Shown piece by piece: positions 16,293 through 51,641 of a stretch of DNA of 64,000 nt. The notes beneath the pieces were generated by a model, which did not search any database, had not been told where the DNA came from, and saw nothing but the letters and a program-made list of their open reading frames with translations. The DNA is taken from sequence record MH791411.1; one strand, 5' to 3'. Position numbers and translations under genes: made by a program. Each line of letters starts with the position of its first letter. Position 1 is the first letter of the stretch. This DNA is from Escherichia phage Ecwhy_1.

Positions 16293-16437
16293 AACATTCC
16301 CTTTTAATAGATGTATTATAGAAATATTTATGAATCTATAACGAATAAAAAAGACCCATCTATAACATTTGTCCAATTTGTCCCATTTTTTGGTAATAAA
16401 TACTACAGAGACATTTATTACATGGAGATTTAATAAA

Positions 16438-17523: not shown

Positions 17524-18323
17524 GGTTTTAAACTACAGAATTGATTGAATTGAATTATGAAAGGAATTAATTATTTTATAGTGAACTCATCTAACTCATT
17601 TCATTCGTTAGCTGAAGAATATTCGTTACTACGTAACTCATATTCATTTCTTATAATTAATTATAAAGAACTTTAAAAGATTTAATACTTGACGGGATTT
17701 GTTGAAGACATTTTCATCCCCCCGCAGGGGAATGAAGACAATAAAAAAGAGACAATTAAGTCTCTTAATTCTTGACGCTGATGGTTTCAGCATTTATTGT
17801 ATTGCGAATTTCTTAAAATTCATTAAGAACGAAAGCGGGTTGCTCTGTTTCTCTCTATCGCAGTCATGTGCAACGGTCGTCAGTCTTAATCATCCTGACA
17901 CTCACCTGAAAGTCTATACAATCAAACTTCAGGCTGTTTATTAAATCACTTAATAAACTCCCTTAGCAAATCTGGTAAGGTGCGATCCTTATACATCTAT
18001 CGAGGAACTCTCTGTATGCTTATCGGAGTTCTTTATTGAGCCGTGTCGCCGTGAGGGGTTCAAACTATGCCCACATCTAACGGGTTTCTTCTGCTCATCG
18101 CACTGTTGAACTGCTCATCTGCCATCTACATTTTCGATAGGATCAGGTTCTAATTTATATGCATTTCTGCATTCAACAGGATTGTCATCACTACAATTAA
18201 CATTATAGCACCAAATTCAAAAGTGTCTCACTATTATGATAAAAAATTTATAAAAAGTACATAATTCTTGAACATTGAAGTAACGCATAAATATTTTGAT
18301 AAGAATTAGTTTAGTGGGGATTT

Positions 18324-18833: not shown

Positions 18834-20981
18834 TTAGAATACATCATCAAGAGTTGTATACTCAACAGTACTGAAACCATCCTCTTTAACTACTTTTAGG
18901 ATTTTCTCAGTCTTAGAAAGCAATTCTTCTCTGTGAGAAATGGCATATACATTCTTACCACGCACAGCAGCCATATCTTGGAAGATAGACCACACGCGAA
19001 GAACACCACTTGAATCAAGACCTTGGTCAATCATCTCATCAATGATAAGAATATTGATACTTTGATACAATGACTCATATGTATCACGGAAAGCACAAGA
19101 TAAAGCAATGTTTACCCTTGTACGCTCACCGCGACTAAGCTGTTTATAGTCAAAGTACTGACCACTTTTCTCAATTTCTACACTCAAATCATTCAAGAAC
19201 ACAACATTATGTTCAGAACCACACATATCAATGTAATATTGAAGACGTGTATTCAGATACGAAATGTTTTGTTCAATAATACGCTTACGGACATAAGAAT
19301 CCTTGTTTAACAACAATTTAACCAAGAAATCTTGGTGATTTGCCATCTTATCAAGGTTATTATAGTCACTATAGTCGATTGGTACTAATGAATCGGTCGT
19401 AAGTGTATTAATTTGTCCAATAAATGTGTTAGTAGTTTTCAATTCACGATCTAATTGCTGCGATAATGAAGTTACTGTCATTTCTAACTCTTTTACTTCA
19501 GATTTATTCAATGTATCTGGTACTTCTTGAAGAACATGTGCGTTCAGTTCTTCATATGATGACATAAGTTCATTAGCATAGATGTTAATTTGCTCTTCTT
19601 CACTCTTTTTAATAAGTTCTTGAAGCTTATGCTCATGCATTTGTGCTTCAGTTAGTGTAGAATAGAATGTCACAGGCTTAGGTGGCATATCAAAAATCTC
19701 AATACTATCAATTTCCTGAAGTATTGTTTCAATTTCAGAAGCGGAACTATCAATTTTCGATTGAAGTTCATTAATAGTATTTTGAATTTTATCTTTAATA
19801 GACGAAGTATGTTCATTATGTTCTAATTCGGACATACAAAGTGGACATTTACTACTCTCCACTGTTGCTAATTTGTCCACCTCAGCACGTAACGAACTCT
19901 CATGACCATTTAAAGCCACCTTTAATGCGTTAAGTTTTTGTTCTTTGAAACGTTTTTGGTTATTATTCTCTTTTAGAATACCCTCCAACTGTTTCCATAT
20001 CTCCAACTCATTGTGATTTTCTAATTCAGTACTGATATCAATAGTTTTTAGCTTATCAATACTTACATTTAATGCTAATTTTGCTGTTGCTAGTTCACGG
20101 TCATATGCATCATACTTCAAAGCTAACTCTTGCACACGTCTTTCTATTTGATCACGAGCAGCATTATGAATAAGAGCTTTCTCTTTCACTTCTGCCAAAT
20201 CATAGAGATCGTTGAAGTCTAAAGTTTTGTAGATATTCAATTCTTCAGTCAACTTAGATACTCTATTATTTTTATCAATCTCAAATTGGTTAGCTTGTTC
20301 TTGTAATGATTCAATACTTTTTTGAATACGTTCATTACTTGCAGCCACAGTTTCAATTTTAAACTTTTCTTGTTCAGCTAAACGTTTAGAATCTTTATAC
20401 ATATCCTTTAATAGTTCAGCTTTCTCTGTTAATTGTGTGATGCCCAGAAGTTCCTCAATCATATCACGTTGTTTCTGTGATGATAATGCAAGAAACGGCT
20501 CTACGTTAGCATTAAGTACTACAATATGTTCAAATAGTAGTTGAGAAATCCCAAGAATCTCGTTTAGATCTTCTTGTGTATCTTTCTTCTCCCCTCTTGA
20601 CTCATCTTCGACCTTATTATCTTTACCTAATGTAATAAAGTTGAAATACGTGGGACTTCTCCCACGCTCGACGAGATATTGTACACCATCTTTCTCGAAC
20701 TCAACAGATACTTCACAGTTTTTAGCATTAGTTTTATTAACTAAGTTTGGAATTTTGATATCGTTACCAATACTTTTTCCAAACAAACCAAAAACTAAAC
20801 CTTGAATGATGGCACTTTTACCAACACCATTACGGCGACCGGAACTATCACCACCTTCAATAACTGCATCATTGTTTTGACCAAGAACTAACGATATATC
20901 AGCACCAGACAAATCAATTACTTGTGGTGCATTGCCAAATGAAAAGAAGTTCCTCATTGATATACGTGTAATGTTTAGCAC
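18834..20981 (-). CDS. 46: Rad50/SbcC-like recombination ATPase (gp46-like), 715 aa, GTG start
   Basis: N-terminal Walker A GRRNGVGKSAI, long coiled-coil with CPLC zinc-hook, ABC signature LSRGERTRV, Walker B ILIIDE; GTG at 20981 preceded by AAGGGAAA. Confidence 0.85.
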   Translation of the reverse strand: MLNITRISMRNFFSFGNAPQVIDLSGADISLVLGQNNDAVIEGGDSSGRRNGVGKSAIIQGLVFGLFGKSIGNDIKIPNLVNKTNAKNCEVSVEFEKDGVQYLVERGRSPTYFNFITLGKDNKVEDESRGEKKDTQEDLNEILGISQLLFEHIVVLNANVEPFLALSSQKQRDMIEELLGITQLTEKAELLKDMYKDSKRLAEQEKFKIETVAASNERIQKSIESLQEQANQFEIDKNNRVSKLTEELNIYKTLDFNDLYDLAEVKEKALIHNAARDQIERRVQELALKYDAYDRELATAKLALNVSIDKLKTIDISTELENHNELEIWKQLEGILKENNNQKRFKEQKLNALKVALNGHESSLRAEVDKLATVESSKCPLCMSELEHNEHTSSIKDKIQNTINELQSKIDSSASEIETILQEIDSIEIFDMPPKPVTFYSTLTEAQMHEHKLQELIKKSEEEQINIYANELMSSYEELNAHVLQEVPDTLNKSEVKELEMTVTSLSQQLDRELKTTNTFIGQINTLTTDSLVPIDYSDYNNLDKMANHQDFLVKLLLNKDSYVRKRIIEQNISYLNTRLQYYIDMCGSEHNVVFLNDLSVEIEKSGQYFDYKQLSRGERTRVNIALSCAFRDTYESLYQSINILIIDEMIDQGLDSSGVLRVWSIFQDMAAVRGKNVYAISHREELLSKTEKILKVVKEDGFSTVEYTTLDDVF

Positions 20982-20993
20982 AATAAATTTCCC

Positions 20994-22025
20994 TTATAGT
21001 GATCTGTAAATTTGGATTAGAAGATTTTTATCGAACATAGGTGAATCAATTTCCATGATTTGTTGTAACACAATCTCATCAACTGACTCAGTACTTTCAA
21101 AGCTTTCACCATCTTCAATAAGTTCTTTGATACTTTGCTTGCTAGTAACAACGTTAAACTCACGAATGTTATAAAGTTTAGTAAAAGTATCACGAATAAA
21201 ACTAATCTCATCAGTAGTGATAGCAATATCAACTTGAACCTTTGAAATAGTATTGTCTTGAAGATAATAACTTGGATCTGTTAATAGTTCTGAAAGTGTA
21301 AATGTTCTATATTTTGGTGCTTCTGACCAAGAATGGAAAGTTGGTTCTTTACCATGTTCTAAAATCATCACACCTCTTGCATCATCCCATGTATCAGAAA
21401 AGTTATGTGGGAAACAGTTACCTGTGTAAATTACACGAGTTCCTTTAGATGTTGTTTTTGCTTGTCTCTTGTGGAAATGTCCACTAAAAACATACTCACA
21501 ACCACCAAAAGAACCTTCAGTCTCTTTACCATGATCTGGCATCTCAACCATTTTATTGAGCAAGTATCCAGGTAACTCTAAGTGACCAAAAACATACTTA
21601 CTTTTAAGTTGAGGTAGAACTTTGTATTCATCTTCAATCATAAATGGAATGAAAGTACAATCATCAAATGTTGTGATTTCATTAATGAACTCGATGTTCT
21701 CATAAACTTGTGCCATATTAATACTAGTAATGTCACGTTTATTTTTATGATACATGTCATGGTTCCCAACTAAGAAGTAAACCTTATCAAAGTTGTCATT
21801 TAGTAATTGTAGAATTTGTAAACCATAGTTTAATGTTTGAATGTTAATATTACTGCGGTTATGGAAGTAATCTCCCATAAACACGCATACAGTAATACCA
21901 TTTTTCTTAGCAAGTTCAATCATAAACTTGATGAAGTTCAAACAATCTTCGTTGTGCTGCTTGCTGTTATTCTTTAATCCTAAATGAATATCAGTAAATG
22001 TAATTGCTTTATCAAATAGAGCCAT
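20994..22025 (-). CDS. 47: Mre11/SbcD-like nuclease (gp47-like), ~343 aa
   Basis: Calcineurin-like phosphoesterase motifs FTDIHLG, GDYFH, GNHD, GHLE, SGHFH; ATG at 22025 with AAAGGA SD (track ORF starts 18 nt earlier). Confidence 0.85.
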   Translation of the reverse strand: MALFDKAITFTDIHLGLKNNSKQHNEDCLNFIKFMIELAKKNGITVCVFMGDYFHNRSNINIQTLNYGLQILQLLNDNFDKVYFLVGNHDMYHKNKRDITSINMAQVYENIEFINEITTFDDCTFIPFMIEDEYKVLPQLKSKYVFGHLELPGYLLNKMVEMPDHGKETEGSFGGCEYVFSGHFHKRQAKTTSKGTRVIYTGNCFPHNFSDTWDDARGVMILEHGKEPTFHSWSEAPKYRTFTLSELLTDPSYYLQDNTISKVQVDIAITTDEISFIRDTFTKLYNIREFNVVTSKQSIKELIEDGESFESTESVDEIVLQQIMEIDSPMFDKNLLIQIYRSL

Positions 22026-22851
22026 CTTCGTTTTTCCTTTCAATCATGTTCATTTCAATTTCGATTTGACGAGTGTGTGATGGTGTAAAACCATGCATCT
22101 CAAGTAAATCGTCTCGGATGTTACGAACATTTTTCTCACTATTAAGAATCGAACGGAAACTATTGTTAACGAACGAAGTATAGTAAGAGAAAGGATTCAA
22201 CTGTACTGCTGGTTTATCTTTTTTGTAAAGAATACTCTCTTTAAAGAGAAGTGCGTTTTTAACTAATTGTATTCTGGCATCACCCATCATTTCATCCAAA
22301 TATGTATAGTTTCTATAGTTGGATTTGTGTGAGATTTCCTCTGCCAGTTTAATGAACATTTTACCTAGTTCATTAGTGATTTTACCATGAACAGTACTGA
22401 ATTCTCCGTCTTCAAGATCACCTTTCCAGTGAGAACGAACGACTTCGTACAGAATACCTTCTTCATCTACAATGTAATGTTTGAATGGTTCAAAATTTAC
22501 TCTTGTATCTGCTGGGATATGTTCATCGGTAATTACACGAATAACCACCTCATCGATAGGTACATCAGTCAGTACTAAATTGTGCTCATCTGCGTATTCC
22601 TTCGCTTTCTTCGCACTCATACCTTCTTTTTCACGAATTGCATCAAGCATTTCATTGTTGAGACGTTTAATACGTGCTGCTTTAGCTTTATCTAAAAGTT
22701 CTGCTGTAATTTCGGATTCATCAAAAACGATATAATCGTACATACTGTAGCACTTATCTAGTAACCAGCAATATGAGATTTTACTTTTTTGTATCTCACG
22801 AAGTAAATCAGCATTGTTAAGATACTTTTTACGCTTCGGCCTATTTGTCAT
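22012..22851 (-). CDS. 55: late-transcription sigma factor (gp55-like) with ~120-aa internal insertion, ~279 aa
   Basis: KYLNNADLLREIQKSK resembles T4 gp55 KYNYVNNKELLQAIIDWK; LGKMFIKLAEEISHKSNYRNYTYLDEMMGD and NPFSYYTSFVNNSFRSIL resemble the gp55 core as recalled; GGAGAG SD. Confidence 0.65.
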   Translation of the reverse strand: MTNRPKRKKYLNNADLLREIQKSKISYCWLLDKCYSMYDYIVFDESEITAELLDKAKAARIKRLNNEMLDAIREKEGMSAKKAKEYADEHNLVLTDVPIDEVVIRVITDEHIPADTRVNFEPFKHYIVDEEGILYEVVRSHWKGDLEDGEFSTVHGKITNELGKMFIKLAEEISHKSNYRNYTYLDEMMGDARIQLVKNALLFKESILYKKDKPAVQLNPFSYYTSFVNNSFRSILNSEKNVRNIRDDLLEMHGFTPSHTRQIEIEMNMIERKNEDGSI

Positions 22852-22908
22852 TATTTCAACTCTCCATGTTTTAAATCCAATAGGTACATTCCTTGTACCA
22901 TCAATGTT

Positions 22909-22936
22909 ATTATAGCACCAAAAACGTCTTTGTCCC
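22909..22936 (-). promoter_or_regulatory. sigma70-like promoter (GGGACA-N16-TATAAT) for the gp55-gp47-gp46 operon
   Basis: TATAAT at 22914-22909 and GGGACA at 22936-22931 read on the minus strand. Confidence 0.4.
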
Positions 22937-22939
22937 ACG

Positions 22940-22947
22940 TATAAATA
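22940..22947 (+). promoter_or_regulatory. T4-type late promoter TATAAATA for the baseplate operon
   Basis: Exact TATAAATA 36 nt upstream of the 22983 ATG. Confidence 0.65.
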
Positions 22948-22982
22948 CATCAAATGTTCCCTTCTTATGGAGAATCAAAAAG

Positions 22983-23714
22983 ATGATTGATCGTAGAATC
23001 CGATTAAGACCTAAAACCGCAGGTGCTAACTATGTGTATGGTGATTTTGGCAACAGTTCAGAACCAACATTGCTATCGTTTCTGCGTCCAACAAATGGTT
23101 TGGTTTGGACTGTAACCCCAACTGTAACTGAACAAAGGTCGGTTCAATATGAAACACAGTCCCCTATACATACTAACAGTAACTACAACAACTACAAGAA
23201 TACAACAAACACTGTTTTCACTATTCAAGGTGAGTTTTATGCGAACACTGCTGCTGAAGCAATGTATGCATTGGCTTGTGTTCATTTTATTCGTTCCGTG
23301 TCCTTAATGGACTTTGGTCGTCAAGCAGCATCTGCTAATAATCCCGAACTAGCAATTGCAGGTGCACCACCGCCAATTTTACTATTAAGTGGGTATGGTC
23401 GTTATACATATAATGATATTCCTGTTATTTTGAAAGCATATAATTTTACATATCCAAATGATGTTTCTTACATTCAGGTTCCATTGAATAGTAGTGATAG
23501 TACTTTTAATTTATCTGATATGGATAGTCGTAAATTCTTCGAACAGCTTAGAAGTACTGGATATATGAATCCACAAGATGAGGTATGGGTTCCACAGAAA
23601 ATATCGGTAACGCTTCAACTTGAAGAACAACCAACATCTGATTACATGACTAAAAAGTTCAACCTAAATGCATTTAAGCGTGGTGAACTATTACGTAATG
23701 GAGGATTTATCTAA
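22983..23714 (+). CDS. baseplate/tail structural protein (~243 aa)
   Basis: Start taken at MIDRRIRL with GGAGAA SD; first gene after the late promoter in the baseplate module. Function inferred from position only. Confidence 0.4.
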   Translation: MIDRRIRLRPKTAGANYVYGDFGNSSEPTLLSFLRPTNGLVWTVTPTVTEQRSVQYETQSPIHTNSNYNNYKNTTNTVFTIQGEFYANTAAEAMYALACVHFIRSVSLMDFGRQAASANNPELAIAGAPPPILLLSGYGRYTYNDIPVILKAYNFTYPNDVSYIQVPLNSSDSTFNLSDMDSRKFFEQLRSTGYMNPQDEVWVPQKISVTLQLEEQPTSDYMTKKFNLNAFKRGELLRNGGFI

Positions 23715-24028
23715 TGTCCAATTATAGTCAATACTCTCCTTATGCAAAGGTTAAACAAACGTGGTATCTTGGTTACAATTTACCACGTGATATGGTTCCT
23801 GCTGATACTGACGACTTCTATGTAATTCCATTGAAGTATGAGCATCAACCTTGGCGTTTAGCATACGAAATGTATGGTAATGAACGTCTGTATTATGTAT
23901 TTGCCCTATTGAATCCTGATATATTAGGAGAAGACCCAATATACAATTTTAATAGTGGTATCACAATTCGTGTTCCCTCAAATCAACGAGTGCAAAACTA
24001 TTTGAACGGTACTCGTAACATAGGTTAA
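23714..24028 (+). CDS. LysM-like / tail protein X (gpX)-like baseplate protein, 104 aa
   Basis: FYVIPL...WRLAYEMYGNERLYYVFALLNPDIL...GITIRVP resembles the P2 gpX pattern as recalled; ATG overlaps the upstream stop. Confidence 0.4.
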   Translation: MSNYSQYSPYAKVKQTWYLGYNLPRDMVPADTDDFYVIPLKYEHQPWRLAYEMYGNERLYYVFALLNPDILGEDPIYNFNSGITIRVPSNQRVQNYLNGTRNIG

Positions 24029-24039
24029 TGGAGTAAAGT

Positions 24040-26295
24040 ATGGCAGATTTACAAAGTTCTGTTGATAATTTTAAAAATGATATTTCAAACATCACAAGTT
24101 CTGCAAAGGCAGCAAAAGAAACTGCAACAAGTACTATTGAAAGCTTAAAAGCCACTGCTAATACTTTGCAAAATGATCTTGAAAAAGTAAAAAACAATTT
24201 TAAAGCTAAGGTTAGTAACGTACAGTCTTTACCAAAGCAAAGTGCAAGCGTTGACCAAGTGTATGAAGACTTGGATCTAAGTGAGTTTGTTATTCCTTAT
24301 GACAATAAATTGTTAAAGTATGACAATCCAACTTGGCACTTTTCCCTTTTCGCATTAGACAAGGATGATTTCAAAAACTTCTGGCTTTACCCAGATGCTG
24401 AAGTTCAACGTCATGTCATCTCTGAAAGTGGTGTAACTGGAAAGTATAATATCACAAGTGTTCAGATGACGCAAGCTGGTCCTTCAACTCCAGGGATGAC
24501 AACCAACTATTGCTTCAACACAGCAGTACTGAACCTTTCAGAAAACAATAGTATGAGTTTATATGATGAACTAATTTCTTTAAGTAATAAACTAAGGTAT
24601 CATAAGTTCATGGACTTACCTTTAATATTAGAATTGAAATTTATTGGATTCAATACTAATGGTGTACCTGAAACTATACCAGAAACAACTCGTAAATGGT
24701 CCGTGAAGATTAACAGTGTTACCGCTAGTGCATCACAAAGTGGTAGTACTATGATGTATTCTATGAGTCTTGTTCATAACCGTACTGCTCTAGTGGATAA
24801 CGTTGAATGGACTCTTAAAGAACCATTTAACTGCACAGCAGAAAACTTTGGTGATTTTTGTTTTGATTTGGAAGATAAATTGAATCAAATGGCAGACCAA
24901 CAATATGGTTATTTGCGTTATAAATTTGGTGAGTTAGCAGAAGGGAAGTTCTTTGAATTTAAAGTTGCACCAGATTTACAGGATTTGTTTATAAACTATG
25001 ATTCTAAACAGATGGCAGAAGCTGGAGCTACAAAAAGTGGTGCACAGGGTTCTAAAAACTTTTCATGGAATCCAAGTACTCCAATTTCTCGAATTATCGA
25101 TGACGTAATAGATACCTGTACTGTACAGGCTGATGATAGTACTAGTGTTCGTCAATTTGTTAATATAATCCCACTTAAACAGTATGTTGGATTTGATAAT
25201 TACCGAAACACGTCAGTTTATAAAGTTGTTTTCTATATAGTTCGTTTTAAAATTGGTGATATTGTTCATGAATCCGATTTACAGCCAGAAAACTTTACAT
25301 TTGAGTATTTCTTTGAAAATGCCGAGAAATATGTAGACCCAAATGACCAAAAACCAAAGATTAACATGAAAACTTACAATTATCAGTTTAGTGGACTCAA
25401 TAGTGAGATTCTAGACCTTGATTTGAAGTTTGACCAGCAATTCTTTGTGGCTACAACTCGTAACCCTGGACCAATACAGGATGTTGCTAACCACGCTGGT
25501 ACTCATACCTCCCAAGAATTGAATATACAAGGGGTTCAGTACAACAGTATACCAGATGCATGGGCAAAAACAAGTGATTTACGCGTTACACGTGATCTTG
25601 GTGGTATGTTAACACAGGCCCAGGAACAACTACTCAATAAAGTTGAAACTTTAGCAAAAGAACAAATGCAAGTTGGTAATGCTGAAGAACAGGATCGTTA
25701 TAATAACTATCAAGTAAACGTTCTACCACAGTATATTGAAGATTATGTAACCACATATGAAGAAAATGACGGTGGAACCGATGGAATTGGTCATCGATAT
25801 GGTGAAGTGTTTACAATGCCGACTGAAGCAACAAATAATGAAACAACATTGTCTGCATCATTGAACGATAACAGTAGCACATATGAAATGGATCGCCGTA
25901 AAATTCGTGACAACTATTACAATCGTCCATTCTTGTGTAAATTGGATATGCGTGTTGTTGGTGACCCATTCTGGTTGGGTTGGAGTGATTATTCATATAT
26001 CCAATATCTTGAACAGGTAATTAATGGGGAAGATATGGAAATTAATCCCGAAGATTACCATGTTGCTAACTATATTACATCTGAAGCATATCTTTTATTG
26101 AAATTACAACCTGTGGTTTCTATAAATGATAATACTGGTGTTCTTGATATTAATACACCAACTACATTTAACCAAACTGTATATCGTGTTAACAAAATTG
26201 TTCATGATTTTGGTGCAGGTGGTTCATTTACACAACAAATTCAGGCTGCAATTGTAATTCGTGCACTCAAACGTCACGATAGTATAATTGAATAA
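24040..26295 (+). CDS. baseplate hub-like structural protein (751 aa)
   Basis: N-terminal coiled coil; lies immediately upstream of the spike gene as hub proteins usually do. Positional inference. Confidence 0.35.
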   Translation: MADLQSSVDNFKNDISNITSSAKAAKETATSTIESLKATANTLQNDLEKVKNNFKAKVSNVQSLPKQSASVDQVYEDLDLSEFVIPYDNKLLKYDNPTWHFSLFALDKDDFKNFWLYPDAEVQRHVISESGVTGKYNITSVQMTQAGPSTPGMTTNYCFNTAVLNLSENNSMSLYDELISLSNKLRYHKFMDLPLILELKFIGFNTNGVPETIPETTRKWSVKINSVTASASQSGSTMMYSMSLVHNRTALVDNVEWTLKEPFNCTAENFGDFCFDLEDKLNQMADQQYGYLRYKFGELAEGKFFEFKVAPDLQDLFINYDSKQMAEAGATKSGAQGSKNFSWNPSTPISRIIDDVIDTCTVQADDSTSVRQFVNIIPLKQYVGFDNYRNTSVYKVVFYIVRFKIGDIVHESDLQPENFTFEYFFENAEKYVDPNDQKPKINMKTYNYQFSGLNSEILDLDLKFDQQFFVATTRNPGPIQDVANHAGTHTSQELNIQGVQYNSIPDAWAKTSDLRVTRDLGGMLTQAQEQLLNKVETLAKEQMQVGNAEEQDRYNNYQVNVLPQYIEDYVTTYEENDGGTDGIGHRYGEVFTMPTEATNNETTLSASLNDNSSTYEMDRRKIRDNYYNRPFLCKLDMRVVGDPFWLGWSDYSYIQYLEQVINGEDMEINPEDYHVANYITSEAYLLLKLQPVVSINDNTGVLDINTPTTFNQTVYRVNKIVHDFGAGGSFTQQIQAAIVIRALKRHDSIIE

Positions 26296-26308
26296 GGAAT
26301 AATTTAAG

Positions 26309-28972
26309 ATGGCAGATACAAGTAAGAAATATGCCCAACAACAGTTGGGTCGTTTTGACCCTTCGTATCCACAACTAGCAACCGTGATGGATAACCGTGA
26401 CCCAACTAAATCCGGTAAGCTAAAAGTGTGGATTCAAGGTTCACAAAGTGATAAAAATTCAAAAGAGTCATGGATTGAAGCATCATACATGTCTCCATTC
26501 GCTGGTAAAACTCCAGGGATACCAAGTGCTGATGCTTATGGTCAATATCCAAAGGGATATGGTTTTTGGGCGGTTCCACCTGATGTCGGATGTACTGTTG
26601 TTGTTATATTTGCACAAGCAAGAACATTCCAAGCGTATTGGATTGGTTGTGTTTATGACCAACGTATGAATACGATGGTTCCTGGGATGGCTACTGAAAT
26701 AAGCAACTATGCTGGTACTGATATGCCATTACCCGTAACTGATTATGACCGTAATACAATTTCTACCAGTACTCAAGACAAATATGCAAACGTTCCAATT
26801 ATTGCAGGTCTGAAAAAACAAAACTTACTTTATGATGAGGAAGCGGGTGTTGCTAACCGTAGCAGTACTCGCCAGACCACCAGTACTGTTTATGGTCTTT
26901 CCTCACCTCGTGGTAACAGTTTTATTATTGATGATGGTTACACAGAAGAAGAATTAACAGCACCTACATGGGATCAAGATCCAGATGGTTATCAGGATAC
27001 CCAATTCAATAACCCAGTGAACGATACTCGTGTTGGTTCTCGTAAAAATGAAGGCGTTGTAATTAAAACACGTAGTGGTGCACAGTTGTTGTTATCTGAA
27101 GCCTCTGGTGATGTTCTTTTAATTAACCGTGATGGTACTGCACGTATTAAATTCACTGGTGAAGGTGATATTGAAATGCACTGTGATAAGAATATTAACA
27201 TTCGTGCAGGTCAAGATATTAACATGGTTGCTGGACGCTCATATAATATTGAAAGTGGAGCAGACTTCAATGCTCGTGTTGGTGCAAACACTAAACTAGA
27301 TTTGGTTGGTGCATTGGATGCTAAAGTTGGTGGTCAGGTTGTTATTAACGCTGGAGCAGATTTACGTTTAGTAACAGCAGCTTCATTACGTATGCAAAGT
27401 GGTAGCAGTACTGATATAACTGCTGGTTCTAATGCGTCAATCTCTGCTGCTACCAGTGCTAATCTTATTGGTTCTTCATCAGCTATTATTAGTGGTGGTG
27501 GTCAAACTCTTACTGTTAACAGTGGTGGTAATAGTGGTACTGCTGAATTTAATGCACCAAACTTCCGCACCCCATCTGCTGGCTTGAATGATCATATACA
27601 TGATATATCGGCTTGGGTTGATGCTGAGAATCACGGCAGTACTGTTGAACCTCCACGTCAAGGTGGTGGTAGTGGGAATAGTGAATCCCCAGTTCAACCT
27701 GAACCTGCTAATGATGTAGCTCCAACTTTAGCTCCAGTACAGGACACTGAAGCAATTCAATATGTAAATTATACAACAGAAACAGAACAAGTTCAAACAC
27801 AAGATTTAATGACTTCTGATCCTGGTATGACTGGTTATAGCATTACGTATGAAGGTCTTCATATGTTCATGCCGTGTAGTGGAACCATTCGCCAATACGG
27901 TTATTGGGGGAAAGGTGTCCCGACTAGTGGTGGTGGTAAAGCTGATAGAAGTGGCTGGGAAATACAGTGCAAGGGTGATGTTGTAGCTCCAGATGGCGGT
28001 GTAGTTGTTATCACTAATGGTGCTTTATTGGTTCAACATAAGTCTGGATATAAATCTGTATTTTATAATATTCAATCAGATTTGCTCAATAAAGACGTTG
28101 TTCAAAAAGGTCAAGTTATCGGTAAAGCTAATGGTGTTATTCAATTTGAAATAAGAGTTACCTCTGCCAACGTACTAGGATTTAGTGGTTCAGTTGACCC
28201 TGGATTATTCTATGCATCCCAGACTGGTACAGGTTCTGAAGCGGGAAATAAAACATTAATTGCAGGACAAGCAACGAACCAAGCAGCACCGAAAGCTGTT
28301 GTTCAACCTTCTGTTGATAGTGATGAATTAGTTGTAACAACTAAAATTAAAACTATCGGTACTGGGTATTCTCAACGTGGTTCTCGTCATGTCCCTCGTC
28401 GTAGAAGAACACAACGTTCAGGTGGTACTCCAGCACCCACTGCACAAGAATCATACAATGTGGGTAATGTTGATAAGACTGCAATTGATTGGAAAGTTGT
28501 TCCAGGTGATTCACAATTTATTTCTGAATTGAAAGAATATGAAGGAACAATGGCGTATCAACAAGCTAAAGGATATTACCGCAATGGTAAATTCTGGAGA
28601 TATTTGGACAGTCGTGGGTTCCCAACCATCGGCTACGGACACTTGATCGTTGGTGGTGAAAACTTCTCTGGTGGGATTACCGAACAGGAAGCCAATGATA
28701 TGTTGGTGCGTGATAGTAGTAAGGCTATATATGACGCAAAATCCATTTACGCTTCTTATAAGATGAAAACACCTTACATGGCACAACAAGTTCTATGTCA
28801 AATGGTATTCCAGATGGGTAAAGGTGGTGTAATGAAATTTAAGTCAATGCTATCTGAAATGGCTAAAGGTAACTACAAGCAAGCTGCTGCTCAAATTCGA
28901 AATTCAGCTTGGTATCGTCAAACTACACGCCGTGCTGAATTAATGGCACGTAGATTAGAGGCATGTCAATAA
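26309..28972 (+). CDS. 5: baseplate central spike (gp5-like) with M23-peptidase-like domain and C-terminal GH24 lysozyme domain, 887 aa
   Basis: Middle Gly/Ser/Ala-rich beta-helix-like repeats; residues ~745-887 are T4-lysozyme-like with Glu (EYEG), Asp (YLDSRG) and Thr (PTIGYGHL) aligned to the T4L catalytic triad; GWEIQCKGDVVAPDGGVVV...QFEIRV resembles the M23 fold but lacks the His ligands. Confidence 0.7.
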   Translation: MADTSKKYAQQQLGRFDPSYPQLATVMDNRDPTKSGKLKVWIQGSQSDKNSKESWIEASYMSPFAGKTPGIPSADAYGQYPKGYGFWAVPPDVGCTVVVIFAQARTFQAYWIGCVYDQRMNTMVPGMATEISNYAGTDMPLPVTDYDRNTISTSTQDKYANVPIIAGLKKQNLLYDEEAGVANRSSTRQTTSTVYGLSSPRGNSFIIDDGYTEEELTAPTWDQDPDGYQDTQFNNPVNDTRVGSRKNEGVVIKTRSGAQLLLSEASGDVLLINRDGTARIKFTGEGDIEMHCDKNINIRAGQDINMVAGRSYNIESGADFNARVGANTKLDLVGALDAKVGGQVVINAGADLRLVTAASLRMQSGSSTDITAGSNASISAATSANLIGSSSAIISGGGQTLTVNSGGNSGTAEFNAPNFRTPSAGLNDHIHDISAWVDAENHGSTVEPPRQGGGSGNSESPVQPEPANDVAPTLAPVQDTEAIQYVNYTTETEQVQTQDLMTSDPGMTGYSITYEGLHMFMPCSGTIRQYGYWGKGVPTSGGGKADRSGWEIQCKGDVVAPDGGVVVITNGALLVQHKSGYKSVFYNIQSDLLNKDVVQKGQVIGKANGVIQFEIRVTSANVLGFSGSVDPGLFYASQTGTGSEAGNKTLIAGQATNQAAPKAVVQPSVDSDELVVTTKIKTIGTGYSQRGSRHVPRRRRTQRSGGTPAPTAQESYNVGNVDKTAIDWKVVPGDSQFISELKEYEGTMAYQQAKGYYRNGKFWRYLDSRGFPTIGYGHLIVGGENFSGGITEQEANDMLVRDSSKAIYDAKSIYASYKMKTPYMAQQVLCQMVFQMGKGGVMKFKSMLSEMAKGNYKQAAAQIRNSAWYRQTTRRAELMARRLEACQ

Positions 28973-29009: not shown

Positions 29010-29498
29010 ATGAGTAAATGGGAAATCAAAAATACCGACGAACAATTTTTTAAAGAAATTAAAGAATTTGAAGGTACTATTGCGTATCAGAAAAAACTTG
29101 GTTATTTTAAAAATGATAAGTTTTGGGTATATAAAGACAGTCTAGGTCTTGATACCATTGGTTACGGTCACCTTGTACTTAAGGGTGAAAGTTTCAAAAA
29201 TGGACTCACTGAAGCAGAAGCTGATGCTCTCCTTATAAAAGATGCTCAGACCGCTTACAATGACGCAAAATCAATCTATGATCAATTTGGAATGACTGCT
29301 CCAGTACAGGTTCAGCGTGTATTGTGGTTTATGGTGTTCCAAATGGGTAAATCAAAAGTTTTAAATTTCAAAAAAGCGATGGCTGCTCTCGGTCGTGGTG
29401 ATTATAAAACTGCTGGTAAAGAAATGCGTGATAGTTCGTGGTACAAACAAACCACATCCAGAGCGGAGAAGATGGCTCGCATCGTCGAATCCGTATAA
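29010..29498 (+). CDS. e: lysozyme / endolysin, GH24 (T4 gene e-like), 162 aa
   Basis: EFEGT...YKDSLGLDTIGYGHL...MVFQMG...WYKQTTSRAEK matches T4 lysozyme motifs including the catalytic Glu/Asp/Thr; paralogous to the C-terminus of the spike. Confidence 0.9.
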   Translation: MSKWEIKNTDEQFFKEIKEFEGTIAYQKKLGYFKNDKFWVYKDSLGLDTIGYGHLVLKGESFKNGLTEAEADALLIKDAQTAYNDAKSIYDQFGMTAPVQVQRVLWFMVFQMGKSKVLNFKKAMAALGRGDYKTAGKEMRDSSWYKQTTSRAEKMARIVESV

Positions 29499-29915: not shown

Positions 29916-29945
29916 AAAGCACTCTTCGGGGTGCTTTTCTTTTTG
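29916..29945 (+). terminator. rho-independent terminator
   Basis: AAGCACTC-ttcg-GGGTGCTT hairpin followed by TTTCTTTTT. Confidence 0.7.
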
Positions 29946-30011
29946 GATAAATATTTCTATATATAATTCCCAGTACTGAACTAGTACTTTACTGATTTAA
30001 AGGAATAAATT

Positions 30012-33479: not shown

Positions 33480-33507
33480 AAGGCGTTCTTCGGAACGTCT
33501 TTTTTAT
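33480..33507 (+). terminator. rho-independent terminator
   Basis: GGCGTTC-ttcg-GAACGTC hairpin followed by TTTTTTAT. Confidence 0.7.
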
Positions 33508-33553
33508 ATCATAAATAAATCAAATGAATGAACGAATTATATGGAGTCCAAAA

Positions 33554-43558: not shown

Positions 43559-45847
43559 TTACGCAATAACTTTTTCTACTGCTTTAGTGCGTTTAGGTTT
43601 GATAGCCAATTTACCATCAATCACATCAAACGTCACGTTACCACCATTAACTAGAGAACCACACAACATCTCTTTAGCTAGTGGAACACGGATGTTTTGC
43701 TCAATAGTGCGTTTCATTGGACGTGCACCCATCCCAACTTTAACACCATTTGTTGCCAACCACTCACGTGCCGCTTTAGTCAGGGAAACTTTAACTTTGC
43801 GGTCTTTGATTTGTTCATTCAGACTACCCATGAACTTATCAATGATGCTGTCAATCGCTTCGCTGCTTAGGTCTTTGAATGTCACAATACTATCGATACG
43901 GTTGATGAATTCAGGTGGCAAGAATGCTTTAATAGCTTTATCTTGTGCTGTATCACTACCGCTCATCCCAATACTACGCTTGGTTGAATCTGCTGCACCA
44001 AGGTTAGTCGTCATAATAACAGTTACGTTATTGAAGTAAACAGTTTTACCTTGTGAACCAGTCAAACGTCCTTCGTCCAGAACCTGTAGGAAGGTTAGTA
44101 GTACTTTACGATCAGCTTTTTCGATTTCATCAAGCAACAGTACTGCATTCGGGAACTGCTCAATCTTGTCGAGTAGCAGACCGTTACCAGAATCGTGACC
44201 AACATAGCCTGGAGGTGAACCAATCAGTTTAGCAACAGTATGTTCCTGTGAAAACTCGGACATATCGAAACGAATCAGTTCGGAACCAGTTGCATCAGCC
44301 AGTGCTTTGGTAATTTCAGTTTTACCAGTACCAGATGGACCAACAAACATGAATGCACCTTGAACACTTGATTTATCACGCAGACCAGCACGAGCTACCA
44401 TCACGTTATCAACCAGTTTCTGTACTGCTTCTTCTTGACCGTATACACGAGAACGGAGTGCATCTGGTAGATTACGCATACGTTCACTTTCAGTGCAAGC
44501 AACCACGTTAATATCTAGGTTTGCGATACCTGCAACAACTTCTTGAATCAGTGCAACAGTGATGATGTTATCATCAGTTTCACGAGAACGTACTTTCGCT
44601 GCTGCCGCATCCATTAGGTCGATTGCTTTGTCAGGGAAGTGTTTGTTCTTCAGGAACTTATCACTTAGTGTAATAACTGCATCCATTGCTTCAGTACTGA
44701 ACTCTACGTTATGGAAAGTTTCATAAGTAGATTTCAAACCATTCACAATCGCACGGGTTTCATCAATTGTTGGCTCAACTACATCAATTTTCATGAAACG
44801 GCGAGTTAGTGCACTATCTTTTTCGATGTTTTTACGATATTCATCGTAAGTTGTTGCACCGATTACACGAATCTCACCACGAGATAGTGCAGGTTTGAGC
44901 ATGTTGCTCATATCCATAGAACCGTTGCTTGCTGACCCAGCACCAACCATAATATGGATTTCATCGATGAACACAATAGTGTTTTCACGTTTCTTCAGTT
45001 CTTTTAGTAGGTTATCGATACGTTCTTCGAACTCACCACGGTACTTAGTACCAGCAGTCAGTGCACCTACGTTCAGAGACAGAATTTCAACATCTTTAAG
45101 ATGCTCTGGTACTTCACCATCAGCGATTGCCTGTGCTAGACCATCAATGATTTGAGTTTTACCAACACCAGCTTCACCAGTCAGGATGGCATTCTTCTTA
45201 GTCTTACGGGCCAGAGTTTCAATCAGTGCAGAAAGCTCTTTCTGGCGACCAATCATTGGGTCAAGTTTACCTTCTTTTGCAAGTGCGGTTAGGTTAGTGG
45301 TGTAATCTTCTAAACCTTTTTGTTTGGACGATGGTTGCTGTTGTGCCACTTTTTTCTCCCCAGTTGGCTCATCACTAATGCTTTGAAGGTTGATTCCGTT
45401 GTCGATTGCTTCTACGTGCTTCTGTAGAGTTCGTGCTGCTTCAGTACAAGTGATACCCTCTTCACGCAATGCTGCTTCTAGTGCAGTATTTGGGAAGGAC
45501 AAACACTCAAACAGTACAAAATAAGCATCAATTGAGAAATCATCACGTTTAAGTTGCTCAATTACTGATTTCTTAGAAAGTTCCTGAACTACACGGTTCA
45601 CGAGAAGTGATGTGCGGTTCGCTTCATCACCATCAGCACTTTTAGGTGCATGTGGGAATGTTGTATTCTTCAGATATGCAATCAAACGACCGTGTAGGTT
45701 GTCTGCATCGATGTTCATATCTTCAAATACTGCTTTGATGCTATCGATTGTCAGTACTGTAGCACTTAGATGGTCAATAGTCAAGAATGTATGACCCAGA
45801 GAAGTTGCCAGTTCGTCGCTTTTTTTGAATAATTGGGTAAGATTCAT
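43559..45847 (-). CDS. clpA: ClpA-family AAA+ unfoldase (two AAA+ modules), ~762 aa
   Basis: D1 Walker A GEAGVGKT, Walker B IVFIDEIH, arginine-finger region ALTRRF; D2 Walker A GPSGTGKTE, Walker B LLLDEIEKA, sensor MTTNLG and GARPMKR; collinear with E. coli ClpA as recalled; AGGAGA SD. Confidence 0.9.
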   Translation of the reverse strand: MNLTQLFKKSDELATSLGHTFLTIDHLSATVLTIDSIKAVFEDMNIDADNLHGRLIAYLKNTTFPHAPKSADGDEANRTSLLVNRVVQELSKKSVIEQLKRDDFSIDAYFVLFECLSFPNTALEAALREEGITCTEAARTLQKHVEAIDNGINLQSISDEPTGEKKVAQQQPSSKQKGLEDYTTNLTALAKEGKLDPMIGRQKELSALIETLARKTKKNAILTGEAGVGKTQIIDGLAQAIADGEVPEHLKDVEILSLNVGALTAGTKYRGEFEERIDNLLKELKKRENTIVFIDEIHIMVGAGSASNGSMDMSNMLKPALSRGEIRVIGATTYDEYRKNIEKDSALTRRFMKIDVVEPTIDETRAIVNGLKSTYETFHNVEFSTEAMDAVITLSDKFLKNKHFPDKAIDLMDAAAAKVRSRETDDNIITVALIQEVVAGIANLDINVVACTESERMRNLPDALRSRVYGQEEAVQKLVDNVMVARAGLRDKSSVQGAFMFVGPSGTGKTEITKALADATGSELIRFDMSEFSQEHTVAKLIGSPPGYVGHDSGNGLLLDKIEQFPNAVLLLDEIEKADRKVLLTFLQVLDEGRLTGSQGKTVYFNNVTVIMTTNLGAADSTKRSIGMSGSDTAQDKAIKAFLPPEFINRIDSIVTFKDLSSEAIDSIIDKFMGSLNEQIKDRKVKVSLTKAAREWLATNGVKVGMGARPMKRTIEQNIRVPLAKEMLCGSLVNGGNVTFDVIDGKLAIKPKRTKAVEKVIA

Positions 45848-45885
45848 GTATTCTCCTAAATGAGTAGTCACTCTAATTAATAAAC

Positions 45886-45913
45886 ATTATATCACATTCT
45901 TTGCGTTTGTCAA
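45886..45913 (-). promoter_or_regulatory. near-consensus sigma70 promoter TTGACA-N16-TG-n-TATAAT driving the ClpA-like gene
   Basis: Minus-strand TTGACA (45913-45908), 16-nt spacer, extended -10 TGATATAAT (45894-45886); about 35 nt upstream of the ATG. Confidence 0.7.
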
Positions 45914-51532: not shown

Positions 51533-51641
51533 TGTTAAGCCCTTTTAGTAGTGAACTTTCATTTATTTATTAATGGCAACGAAATGTATTTTGTACTGAT
51601 AAATATTGGTATATGACATTAACTCATACAAGGGAAATATT

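Follow-up and report, generated by a model that had tools for sequence, protein, structure and literature searches.

The 64,000-nucleotide (nt) stretch of Escherichia phage Ecwhy_1 analysed here (sequence record MH791411.1; below, the window means this whole stretch) comes from a Rak2-like (Asteriusvirus-type) jumbo coliphage, and the element under study is a 131-base-pair (bp) intergenic gap at 22852-22982 that seems to hold two promoters back to back. The gap is the whole space between the ATG of a gene for a gp55-like late sigma factor (22851, minus strand) and the ATG of a gene for a 243-amino-acid (aa) baseplate/virion protein (22983, plus strand). Over 2.1 kilobases (kb) around it, the sequence is 99.9% identical to that of Escherichia phages fEgEco12 and EC.P1 and ~87% identical to that of 121Q, PBECO4 and Sharanji (Asteriusvirus, ~350-380 kb).

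The leftward operon (18834-22851, minus strand) encodes the gp55-like late sigma factor (22012-22851; 279 aa, Shine-Dalgarno sequence GGAGAG at 22860-22865), a gp47-like SbcD/Mre11 protein (20994-22025, overlapping the gp55 gene by 14 nt) and a gp46-like SbcC/Rad50 protein (18834-20981). The first late transcription unit to the right (22983-28972, plus strand) has its Shine-Dalgarno sequence GGAGA at 22969-22973 and comprises the genes of a gp48-like baseplate tail-tube/virion protein (22983-23714, the 243-aa protein), a gp53-like wedge protein (23714-24028), a 751-aa virion protein (24040-26295) and a gp5-like hub/lysozyme (26309-28972); the next unit is marked by late promoters at 28969 and 28986. 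PHROG and profile matches agree with the gene calls made in the original prediction, an earlier reading of the locus from its letters, which placed gp55-gp47-gp46 to the left and baseplate genes to the right.

The gp55-like protein matches phrog_12791 (E=9e-153) and phrog_234 (E=1e-16), and a profile built from its long relatives matches T4 gp55 in PDB entry 7d7c (7d7c_F, E=6e-4). A Pfam and NCBIfam search with the protein gave no family, and a PDB search with the single sequence returned only spurious Enzyme I matches, T4 gp55 being found only by the profile. Relative to T4 gp55 (185 aa), the protein carries an insertion of ~125 aa (residues ~26-148) between the N-terminal KPK..Y(L/V)NN..LL helix and the main body. 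This long form is common to more than 500 environmental relatives, and in sequence the insertion resembles neither gp33 nor any other PDB entry. In fEgEco12 the gene (g336, L008:20013-20951, equivalent to window 22012-22953) is annotated from an upstream TTG as a 313-aa protein whose reading frame crosses its own promoter and the late promoter; the ATG at 22851 is the start backed by the other genomes and by the protein alignment.

Within the gap, the minus strand reads GGGACA (22936-22931), a 16-nt spacer and TATAAT (22914-22909), and the plus strand reads TATAAATA at 22940-22947, just as the original prediction had it when it proposed a T4-type late promoter facing right and a sigma70-family promoter facing left. 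TATAAATA and the extended element TGGGACA (22937-22931) are 2-3 bp apart, and the predicted start sites of the two promoters are ~51 bp apart. We consider it probable that these are two real back-to-back promoters, the right one a late promoter read by gp55 and the left one a member of a middle class that starts the gp55-gp47-gp46 operon. Host RNA polymerase core with the gp55-like sigma would read ATAAATA at 22941-22947 and start the first baseplate unit (22983-28972), while TGGGACA-N13-TGCTATAAT (22937-22909) would start gp55-gp47-gp46 and belong to the class that drives the replication genes.

The core of the rightward promoter is ATAAATA at 22941-22947 (plus strand), which together with T22940 gives TATAAATA. 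Transcription is predicted from this geometry to start at an A, 22953, 6 nt past the motif, in agreement with the geometry of T4 late promoters. The mere number of TATAAATA copies in the window is not above chance (4 vs 7.05 expected). All four, and 15 of the 16 window copies of ATAAATA, lie 14-63 nt upstream of a gene start on the same strand; the genes behind the latter are mostly structural and include those of the major capsid protein, tail fibre, baseplate, hub and endonuclease VII. The genome of fEgEco12 was assembled whole for genome-wide motif counts. There, ATAAATA is depleted ~4-fold (49 vs 202 ± 13 in dinucleotide shuffles) and TATAAATA ~6-fold (9 vs 58 expected), which suggests selection against stray late promoters. 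For 33 of these 49 ATAAATA copies, the next 85 nt contain a Shine-Dalgarno sequence and an ATG that begins an open reading frame (ORF) of at least 50 codons.

The exact octamer emphasized in the original prediction is indeed present, but the element fixed across the 33 sites is only the 7-mer ATAAATA; the preceding T is found in 24% of them, and nothing is conserved at -35. The 10 nt upstream of the motif are T-rich and an A is preferred 6 nt downstream, 67% of the sites having an A at +12 from the motif start. When the orthologous gaps of eight phages are aligned (hosts: E. coli, Salmonella, Pectobacterium, Erwinia, Klebsiella, Vibrio and Pseudomonas), ATAAATA stands as an invariant block in diverged surroundings. 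Three traits of a T4-type late promoter are thus found together here: a -10 element that resembles TATAAATA and lacks a conserved -35, gene-proximal placement with depletion elsewhere, and a gp55 homologue encoded by the phage.

The late promoter would start the baseplate genes, as had been supposed, but their description as one baseplate operon does not hold, since further late promoters at 28969, 28986, 29947 and 33511 cut the block. Late promoters often directly follow a terminator hairpin and T-run, e.g., ctcttcggggtgcttttctttttggATAAATA (29920-29953; 33485-33517), so the baseplate block is better described as a series of short late units. The tandem promoters 28969 and 28986 stand before a gene at 29010.

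The full leftward site, TGGGACAAAGACGTTTTTGGTGCTATAAT at 22937-22909 (minus strand), matches TG[A/G][A/G]A[C/T][A/G]-N13-TGnTATAAT in a fixed 29-nt frame that is common to 18 sites of the related phage CBB and ~19 sites of fEgEco12. We refer to this middle-type class as class M. Its -35-region element is TGGGACA at 22931-22937 (class consensus TG[G/A]GAC[A/G]), its extended -10 is TGCTATAAT at 22909-22917, with TGC directly before TATAAT, and the gp55 mRNA is predicted from sequence geometry to start at 22901-22902, 7-8 nt past the -10. The eight-phage alignment shows no variation at five -10 positions (T-A-x-A-x-T plus the following A), and TGn before the -10 is kept in five of the six enterobacterial phages. 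Measured against the sigma70 consensus, the site has all six bases of TATAAT, a 16-nt spacer and an extended -10 TG, scoring 10/12; its -35 hexamer GGGACA agrees at four of six positions and has lost the TTG, whereas early-class promoters have TTGAC[A/T] with aaaa/tttt upstream.

Genome-wide in fEgEco12, the two sigma70-family classes separate cleanly. The early class, TTGAC[A/T]-N16/17-TATAAT with an A/T-rich upstream region and often AGTACTG ahead of the -10, counts 63 sites whose -35 matches TTGACA at five or more of six positions; they cluster at the genome ends, before short hypothetical genes, with concentrations at 0-20 kb, 283-327 kb and in the terminal repeat. The second form, TG[G/A]GAC[A/G]-N13-TGnTA[T/C]AAT, occurs 12 times as a strict motif vs 0.05 expected, and its sites precede the DNA polymerase operon and the genes for the clamp, gp32, primase, exonuclease, topoisomerase II, Nudix hydrolase and gp55. 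The window has four class-M sites, all on the minus strand (83-55, 4031-4003, 18230-18202 and 22937-22909). This membership places the leftward site in the middle class and not in the phage's host-consensus type. The label of a host-type promoter therefore stands only insofar as the site is of the sigma70 family: without the TTG of the -35, it is one of a second class, specific to the phage, that serves replication genes.

Other readings of single elements were set aside. The -35 to -20 region, TGGGACAAAGACGTTT, contains no TGCTT, and the MotA box (a/t)(a/t)TGCTT(t/c)A is absent. A sigma70-like match inside the gp55 gene (22295-22266) overlies the invariant coding motif YLDEMMGDARIQ and cannot be judged as a promoter. 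Two observations concern the canonical class. The early promoters of fEgEco12 (0-20, 283-327 and 354-374 kb) are very uniform, consisting of an a/t-rich region, TTGACA, N9, AGTACTG and TATAAT, and one subgroup has its -35 embedded in a hairpin (GGTTGACTTCGGTCAACC); the family and its hairpin subgroup are undescribed for this phage. In the window, the only canonical sigma70 promoter lies at 45886-45913 (minus strand), where a full-consensus TTGACA-N16-TATAAT with an extended -10 TG (TGATATAAT) precedes a ClpB-like ATPase gene (43559-45871).

The layout of the gap is widely conserved. An IMG/VR search with a gp55 alignment gave 547 relatives, of which 80 loci were kept. In 76 of 87 loci, a gene for a homologue of the 243-aa baseplate protein lies upstream of the gp55 gene and diverges from it; the other 11 show no match to the baseplate protein, and most of these offer only a short stretch upstream. 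Among 65 non-redundant loci, 63 have the reverse complement of the late motif, TATTTA[T/G/A], followed by a good sigma70-type promoter for gp55. Members of the enterobacterial clade have a class-M promoter and a leader of 47-57 nt, whereas the distant environmental relatives have a -35 of TTGAC[A/T] (51 of the 65 loci), a -10 of TATAAT or TATACT and a leader of mostly 18-30 nt.

An orthologous pair had already been predicted in CBB (Buttimer et al. 2017, PMC5259590). That paper describes three predicted classes, namely RpoD-like early promoters, 'divergent RpoD-like' promoters with a TGAAACG -35 and ATAAATA late promoters, notes a gp55-like gene just downstream of a second-class promoter, and predicts both the late and the 'divergent RpoD-like' motifs in GAP32 as well. 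According to its Tables S6/S7, Porf_244, a 'divergent RpoD-like' promoter reading TGGAACG...TGGTATAAT (in full, TGGAACGTTTTTTAAAATTGTGGTATAAT), occupies 168,994-169,022 of CBB, and Porf_243, the late promoter ATAAATACTTGATA orthologous to the rightward site described here, occupies 168,976-168,989, 4 bp away in the orthologous gap. The same two classes thus stand back to back in both phages, 4 bp apart there and 2-3 bp apart here, and in both the second class goes with replication genes and ATAAATA with structural genes. The -35-region consensus differs (TGAAACG vs TG[G/A]GACA here), and the CBB paper gives the sites only in supplementary tables, without comment on their pairing, on a leader hairpin or on wider conservation. 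Start sites are predictions in both phages. The papers on phAPEC6, Sharanji and RaK2 contain no promoter analysis, and the RNA-seq paper on PA5oct reports only TTGAC/TATAATA promoters.

The gp55 leader seems to begin with a stem-loop, GGTAC(A)-AGGAA-(U)GUACC at 22883-22899 (minus strand), which is supported by covariation. In the enterobacterial relatives it starts 7-11 nt past the -10, i.e., at the predicted mRNA 5' end. The stem arms vary yet stay complementary (GGTAC/GTACC, TGGGAC/GTCTCA, TAAAAC/GTTTTA, TAGAAC/GTTCTA, AGGAC/GTCCT, CGAAC/GTTCG), while the 7-nt loop A[A/C]GGA[U/A]N is conserved. Across 14 distinct sequences, 87.5% of cells pair, compared with 20-53% when the partners are slid; compensatory changes occur in three of the six pairs (14 cells with double changes), and none of 500 shuffles reaches the covariation score. 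The stem-loop is also the centroid structure of the window leader (-6.9 kcal/mol). Six similar hairpins exist genome-wide, and the other five are not in a promoter-proximal leader; the idea that the hairpin marks a regulon was rejected, the gp55 leader being the sole promoter-proximal case.

The gp55 mRNA would accordingly begin with a stem-loop within ~3 nt of its 5' end. Judging from the comparative pattern, its most likely role would be to protect the message from 5'-end-dependent decay or to tune translation, possibly as a site for a factor or the ribosome. Stem-loops of the ompA leader type, which act against RNase E in E. coli, likewise are short stable hairpins a few nt from the 5' end (here a predicted one). 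In contrast to these, the gp55 loop is conserved and Shine-Dalgarno-like (AAGGA), hinting at recognition by a factor or ribosome.

A candidate reader of class M is encoded by the phage itself. In fEgEco12, g519 (L014:44156-45124) is an RpoD-like sigma with Sigma70_r2 and r3 domains, and its alignment to RpoS/SigB runs through region 4; the gene sits behind early-type promoters. Between genera, the upstream element differs across the whole class together, TGAAACG in CBB and TG[G/A]GACA here, and this concerted shift suggests co-evolution with a phage-encoded reader, with which it would fit.

Drawn from gene order and promoter classes only, a cascade can be proposed. Canonical TTGACA early promoters would be read by host sigma70. 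Among the early products would be the phage RpoD-like sigma (regions 2 and 3, divergent region 4). This sigma, or sigma70 acting through the extended -10, would then read the middle class, giving replication proteins and gp55. Finally, gp55 would switch on ~30 ATAAATA promoters, among them the one that lies 2 bp from the -35 of its own promoter. Polymerase footprints at the two promoters would overlap, and late transcription may damp gp55 synthesis, which is speculative, the geometry not being conserved. A stricter version has three sigma factors in succession, with the RpoD-like sigma and not sigma70 licensing gp55, the gp55-bearing polymerase occluding its own gene and the hairpin giving dedicated post-transcriptional control of the late sigma. 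We put it forward only tentatively, as an unlikely whole.

Several points weigh against the preferred reading of a gp55-read late promoter back to back with a middle-class one. The distant environmental relatives have a canonical gp55 promoter, TTGACA-N17-TATAAT, so the class-M form is limited to the enterobacterial clade, and host sigma70 alone could suffice for an extended -10 combined with GACA at -35. Among the relatives, the distance from the late motif to the -35 ranges over 0-47 nt; a fixed promoter-to-promoter geometry was rejected on this ground, there is no conserved hub geometry, and the range argues against a conserved steric switch. A gp33 homologue was not reported for CBB (PMC5259590), and for the annotated clamp no Pfam or PHROGs function was found, so a T4-like activation mechanism at the ATAAATA promoters is unproven. 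Taken whole, the 55-nt leader has no folding advantage over shuffles (z = -1.07), and the evidence for the hairpin is hence comparative only. A literature search for transcript or start-site data on Asteriusvirus/Rak2-like phages found none; we infer the start sites (~22902 and ~22953), the temporal order, the middle-class sigma and the promoter interference from the sequence.

Among the alternatives, the best supported takes the leftward site for an ordinary promoter of host sigma70 that works unaided as soon as infection begins, which would make gp55 an early gene; we regard this as possible though doubtful. Extended -10 promoters need little -35 contact, and the site combines its perfect TATAAT and extended -10 TG with GACA at -35 and a 16-nt spacer, which together give the 10/12 score; the canonical promoter before gp55 in distant relatives points the same way. 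The early genes of this phage, however, have promoters of another, canonical class, with A/T-rich DNA upstream, TG[G/A]GACA is common to ~19 replication-gene promoters, the element shifts together between genera (TGAAACG in CBB), and the phage encodes an RpoD-like sigma.

A second alternative concerns the inverted repeat at 22883-22899, which might be a DNA operator for a dimeric repressor, or an attenuator or terminator. GGTACA-N5-TGTACC is a perfect palindrome, and in a lenient scan it is terminator-like, but covarying arms around a conserved loop are the signature of an RNA structure and not of a DNA operator. As an intrinsic terminator, the hairpin was rejected: it has only three G-C pairs and the tail UAUUGGAUUU, and the relatives have A-rich tails with no U-run (no T-run in the DNA) after the stem. 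We think an operator or terminator at this place rather improbable.

That gp55 is transcribed mainly from elsewhere, by far-upstream read-through or from a promoter inside the baseplate gene, is very improbable, and no support for it was found. Upstream of gp55, the minus strand lies opposite 20 kb of structural genes (22983-43525), the nearest further gene on it has its start at 45871, and a conserved promoter and leader lie directly before gp55 in every relative examined. It is almost certain, as the original prediction had assumed, that gp55 is started from this gap, the next gene on the same strand being more than 20 kb upstream across the antisense structural block. Least tenable of all, and effectively refuted by the comparative data, is a chance origin of the motifs in A/T-rich intergenic DNA: the totals of TATAAATA and of sigma70-like sites (22 in a scan of 20000-26000 vs 27 expected) are at or below shuffle expectation, but the statistics of placement and orientation, the invariant motif columns amid diverged spacers and the presence of both motifs in 63 of 65 loci would hardly arise by accident.

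The preferred reading, two real promoters with gp55 in the middle class, resembles T4 in its logic. T4 late promoters (TATAAATA) are read by gp55 together with gp33 and the gp45 sliding clamp. Here too, an A/T-rich -10-like element without a -35 lies tens of nt before structural genes, and a gp55 homologue is encoded. The differences are that the conserved core is the 7-mer ATAAATA, that gp55 has 279 aa, with ~125 extra residues after the N-terminal helix, and that gp33 is not reported in CBB and the clamp here is unconfirmed. In T4, genes 46 and 47 are upstream of gene 55, whereas the gene order here is 55-47-46, divergent from the baseplate genes. T4 middle promoters combine a MotA box at -30 with a sigma70 -10 and depend on sigma appropriation by AsiA/MotA. 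The functional analogy is that the second class likewise retains a -10 of the sigma70 type, has another element in place of the -35 and is used for replication genes and the factor of the late switch; unlike in T4, there is no MotA box in the -30 region, the upstream element is at the normal -35 distance, and the likely reader would be the phage RpoD-like sigma and not an appropriated host sigma. In the Bacillus phage SPO1, the cascade runs from host sigmaA to gp28 and then to gp33/34. Successive phage sigmas that redirect the host core polymerase to new promoter classes would be the common feature; in contrast to SPO1, the last sigma here is T4 gp55-like and not of the sigma70 family, and the middle step is unproven. 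T4 middle genes include factors that program the middle-to-late switch (PMC2988021), and the late-sigma gene here is in the same transcription class as the replication genes.

The late sigma gene is indeed divergent from late genes, but the temporal switch claimed for the gap would reflect ordinary T4-like middle-to-late logic and not a property of a hub. In sum, the promoter pair is real and largely ordinary. The original prediction is partly supported: its observation is confirmed and its interpretation is right in outline, but the leftward promoter is wrongly labelled in it and the hub is made out to be more special than it is.

The window holds a second middle/late divergent hub at 18202-18293, where a class-M promoter, TGAGACA-N13-TGCTATAAT (18230-18202, minus strand), would drive a non-coding RNA and a late ATAAATA (18287-18293, plus strand) stands 30 nt before the endonuclease VII gene. 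Late/late divergent pairs were also seen in the window, at 16325/16396 (pair spanning 16325-16402) and 51564/51599 (pair spanning 51564-51605), with ATAAATA on each strand and the motifs 65 and 29 nt apart, respectively.

The non-coding RNA is a structured candidate of ~510 nt (17689-18201, minus strand) with no credible ORF. Its identity is 95.8% in 121Q and Sharanji, compared with ~87% for the neighbouring genes, and 66-73% in CBB, GAP32 and Yersinia, Serratia and Salmonella phages. Rak2-like genomes have four to five copies each, mostly unannotated; the paralogues in fEgEco12 lie at L010:9846-10384, L011:10625-11199 and L014:45188-45680, and three of the four copies in that genome directly follow class-M promoters. 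The sigma gene g519 is directly followed by a class-M promoter and one such paralogue (307083-307604 in the genome). When four paralogues and three orthologues are aligned, 98 pairs are predicted, of which 50, including long-range ones, show compensatory double changes, and long invariant single-stranded blocks, e.g., the loop GAUAGAGAGAAACAGAGCAACCCGCUUUCG, lie between the helices. Rfam gave no family match for the RNA and, at the gathering threshold, nothing over the whole window, and a tRNA search over the whole window found nothing. A 27-nt signature of the RNA is found in IMG/VR only in Rak2-like contigs and in none of 185,579 bacterial and archaeal genomes, and a literature search found no paper describing it. 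The RNA thus appears to be an undescribed large structured RNA family. The four RNA-seq-defined non-coding RNAs of PA5oct, a distant relative, may be analogous; alternatively, the ~510-nt RNA may be an origin transcript of the T4 oriF/oriG kind.

The current understanding of phage transcription is not changed by these results, as T4 is known to follow this logic too and these sites had been predicted before in CBB. What they offer is a testable map of the order of gene expression in a 360-kb coliphage dependent on the host polymerase, with three sequence-defined promoter classes and the late-sigma gene in the middle class, abutting a late promoter. Such a map may be of use in annotation (e.g., of the 313-aa TTG start of gp55 in fEgEco12), in the engineering of therapeutic-candidate phages and as a source of templates for tests of what the phage RpoD-like sigma recognizes.

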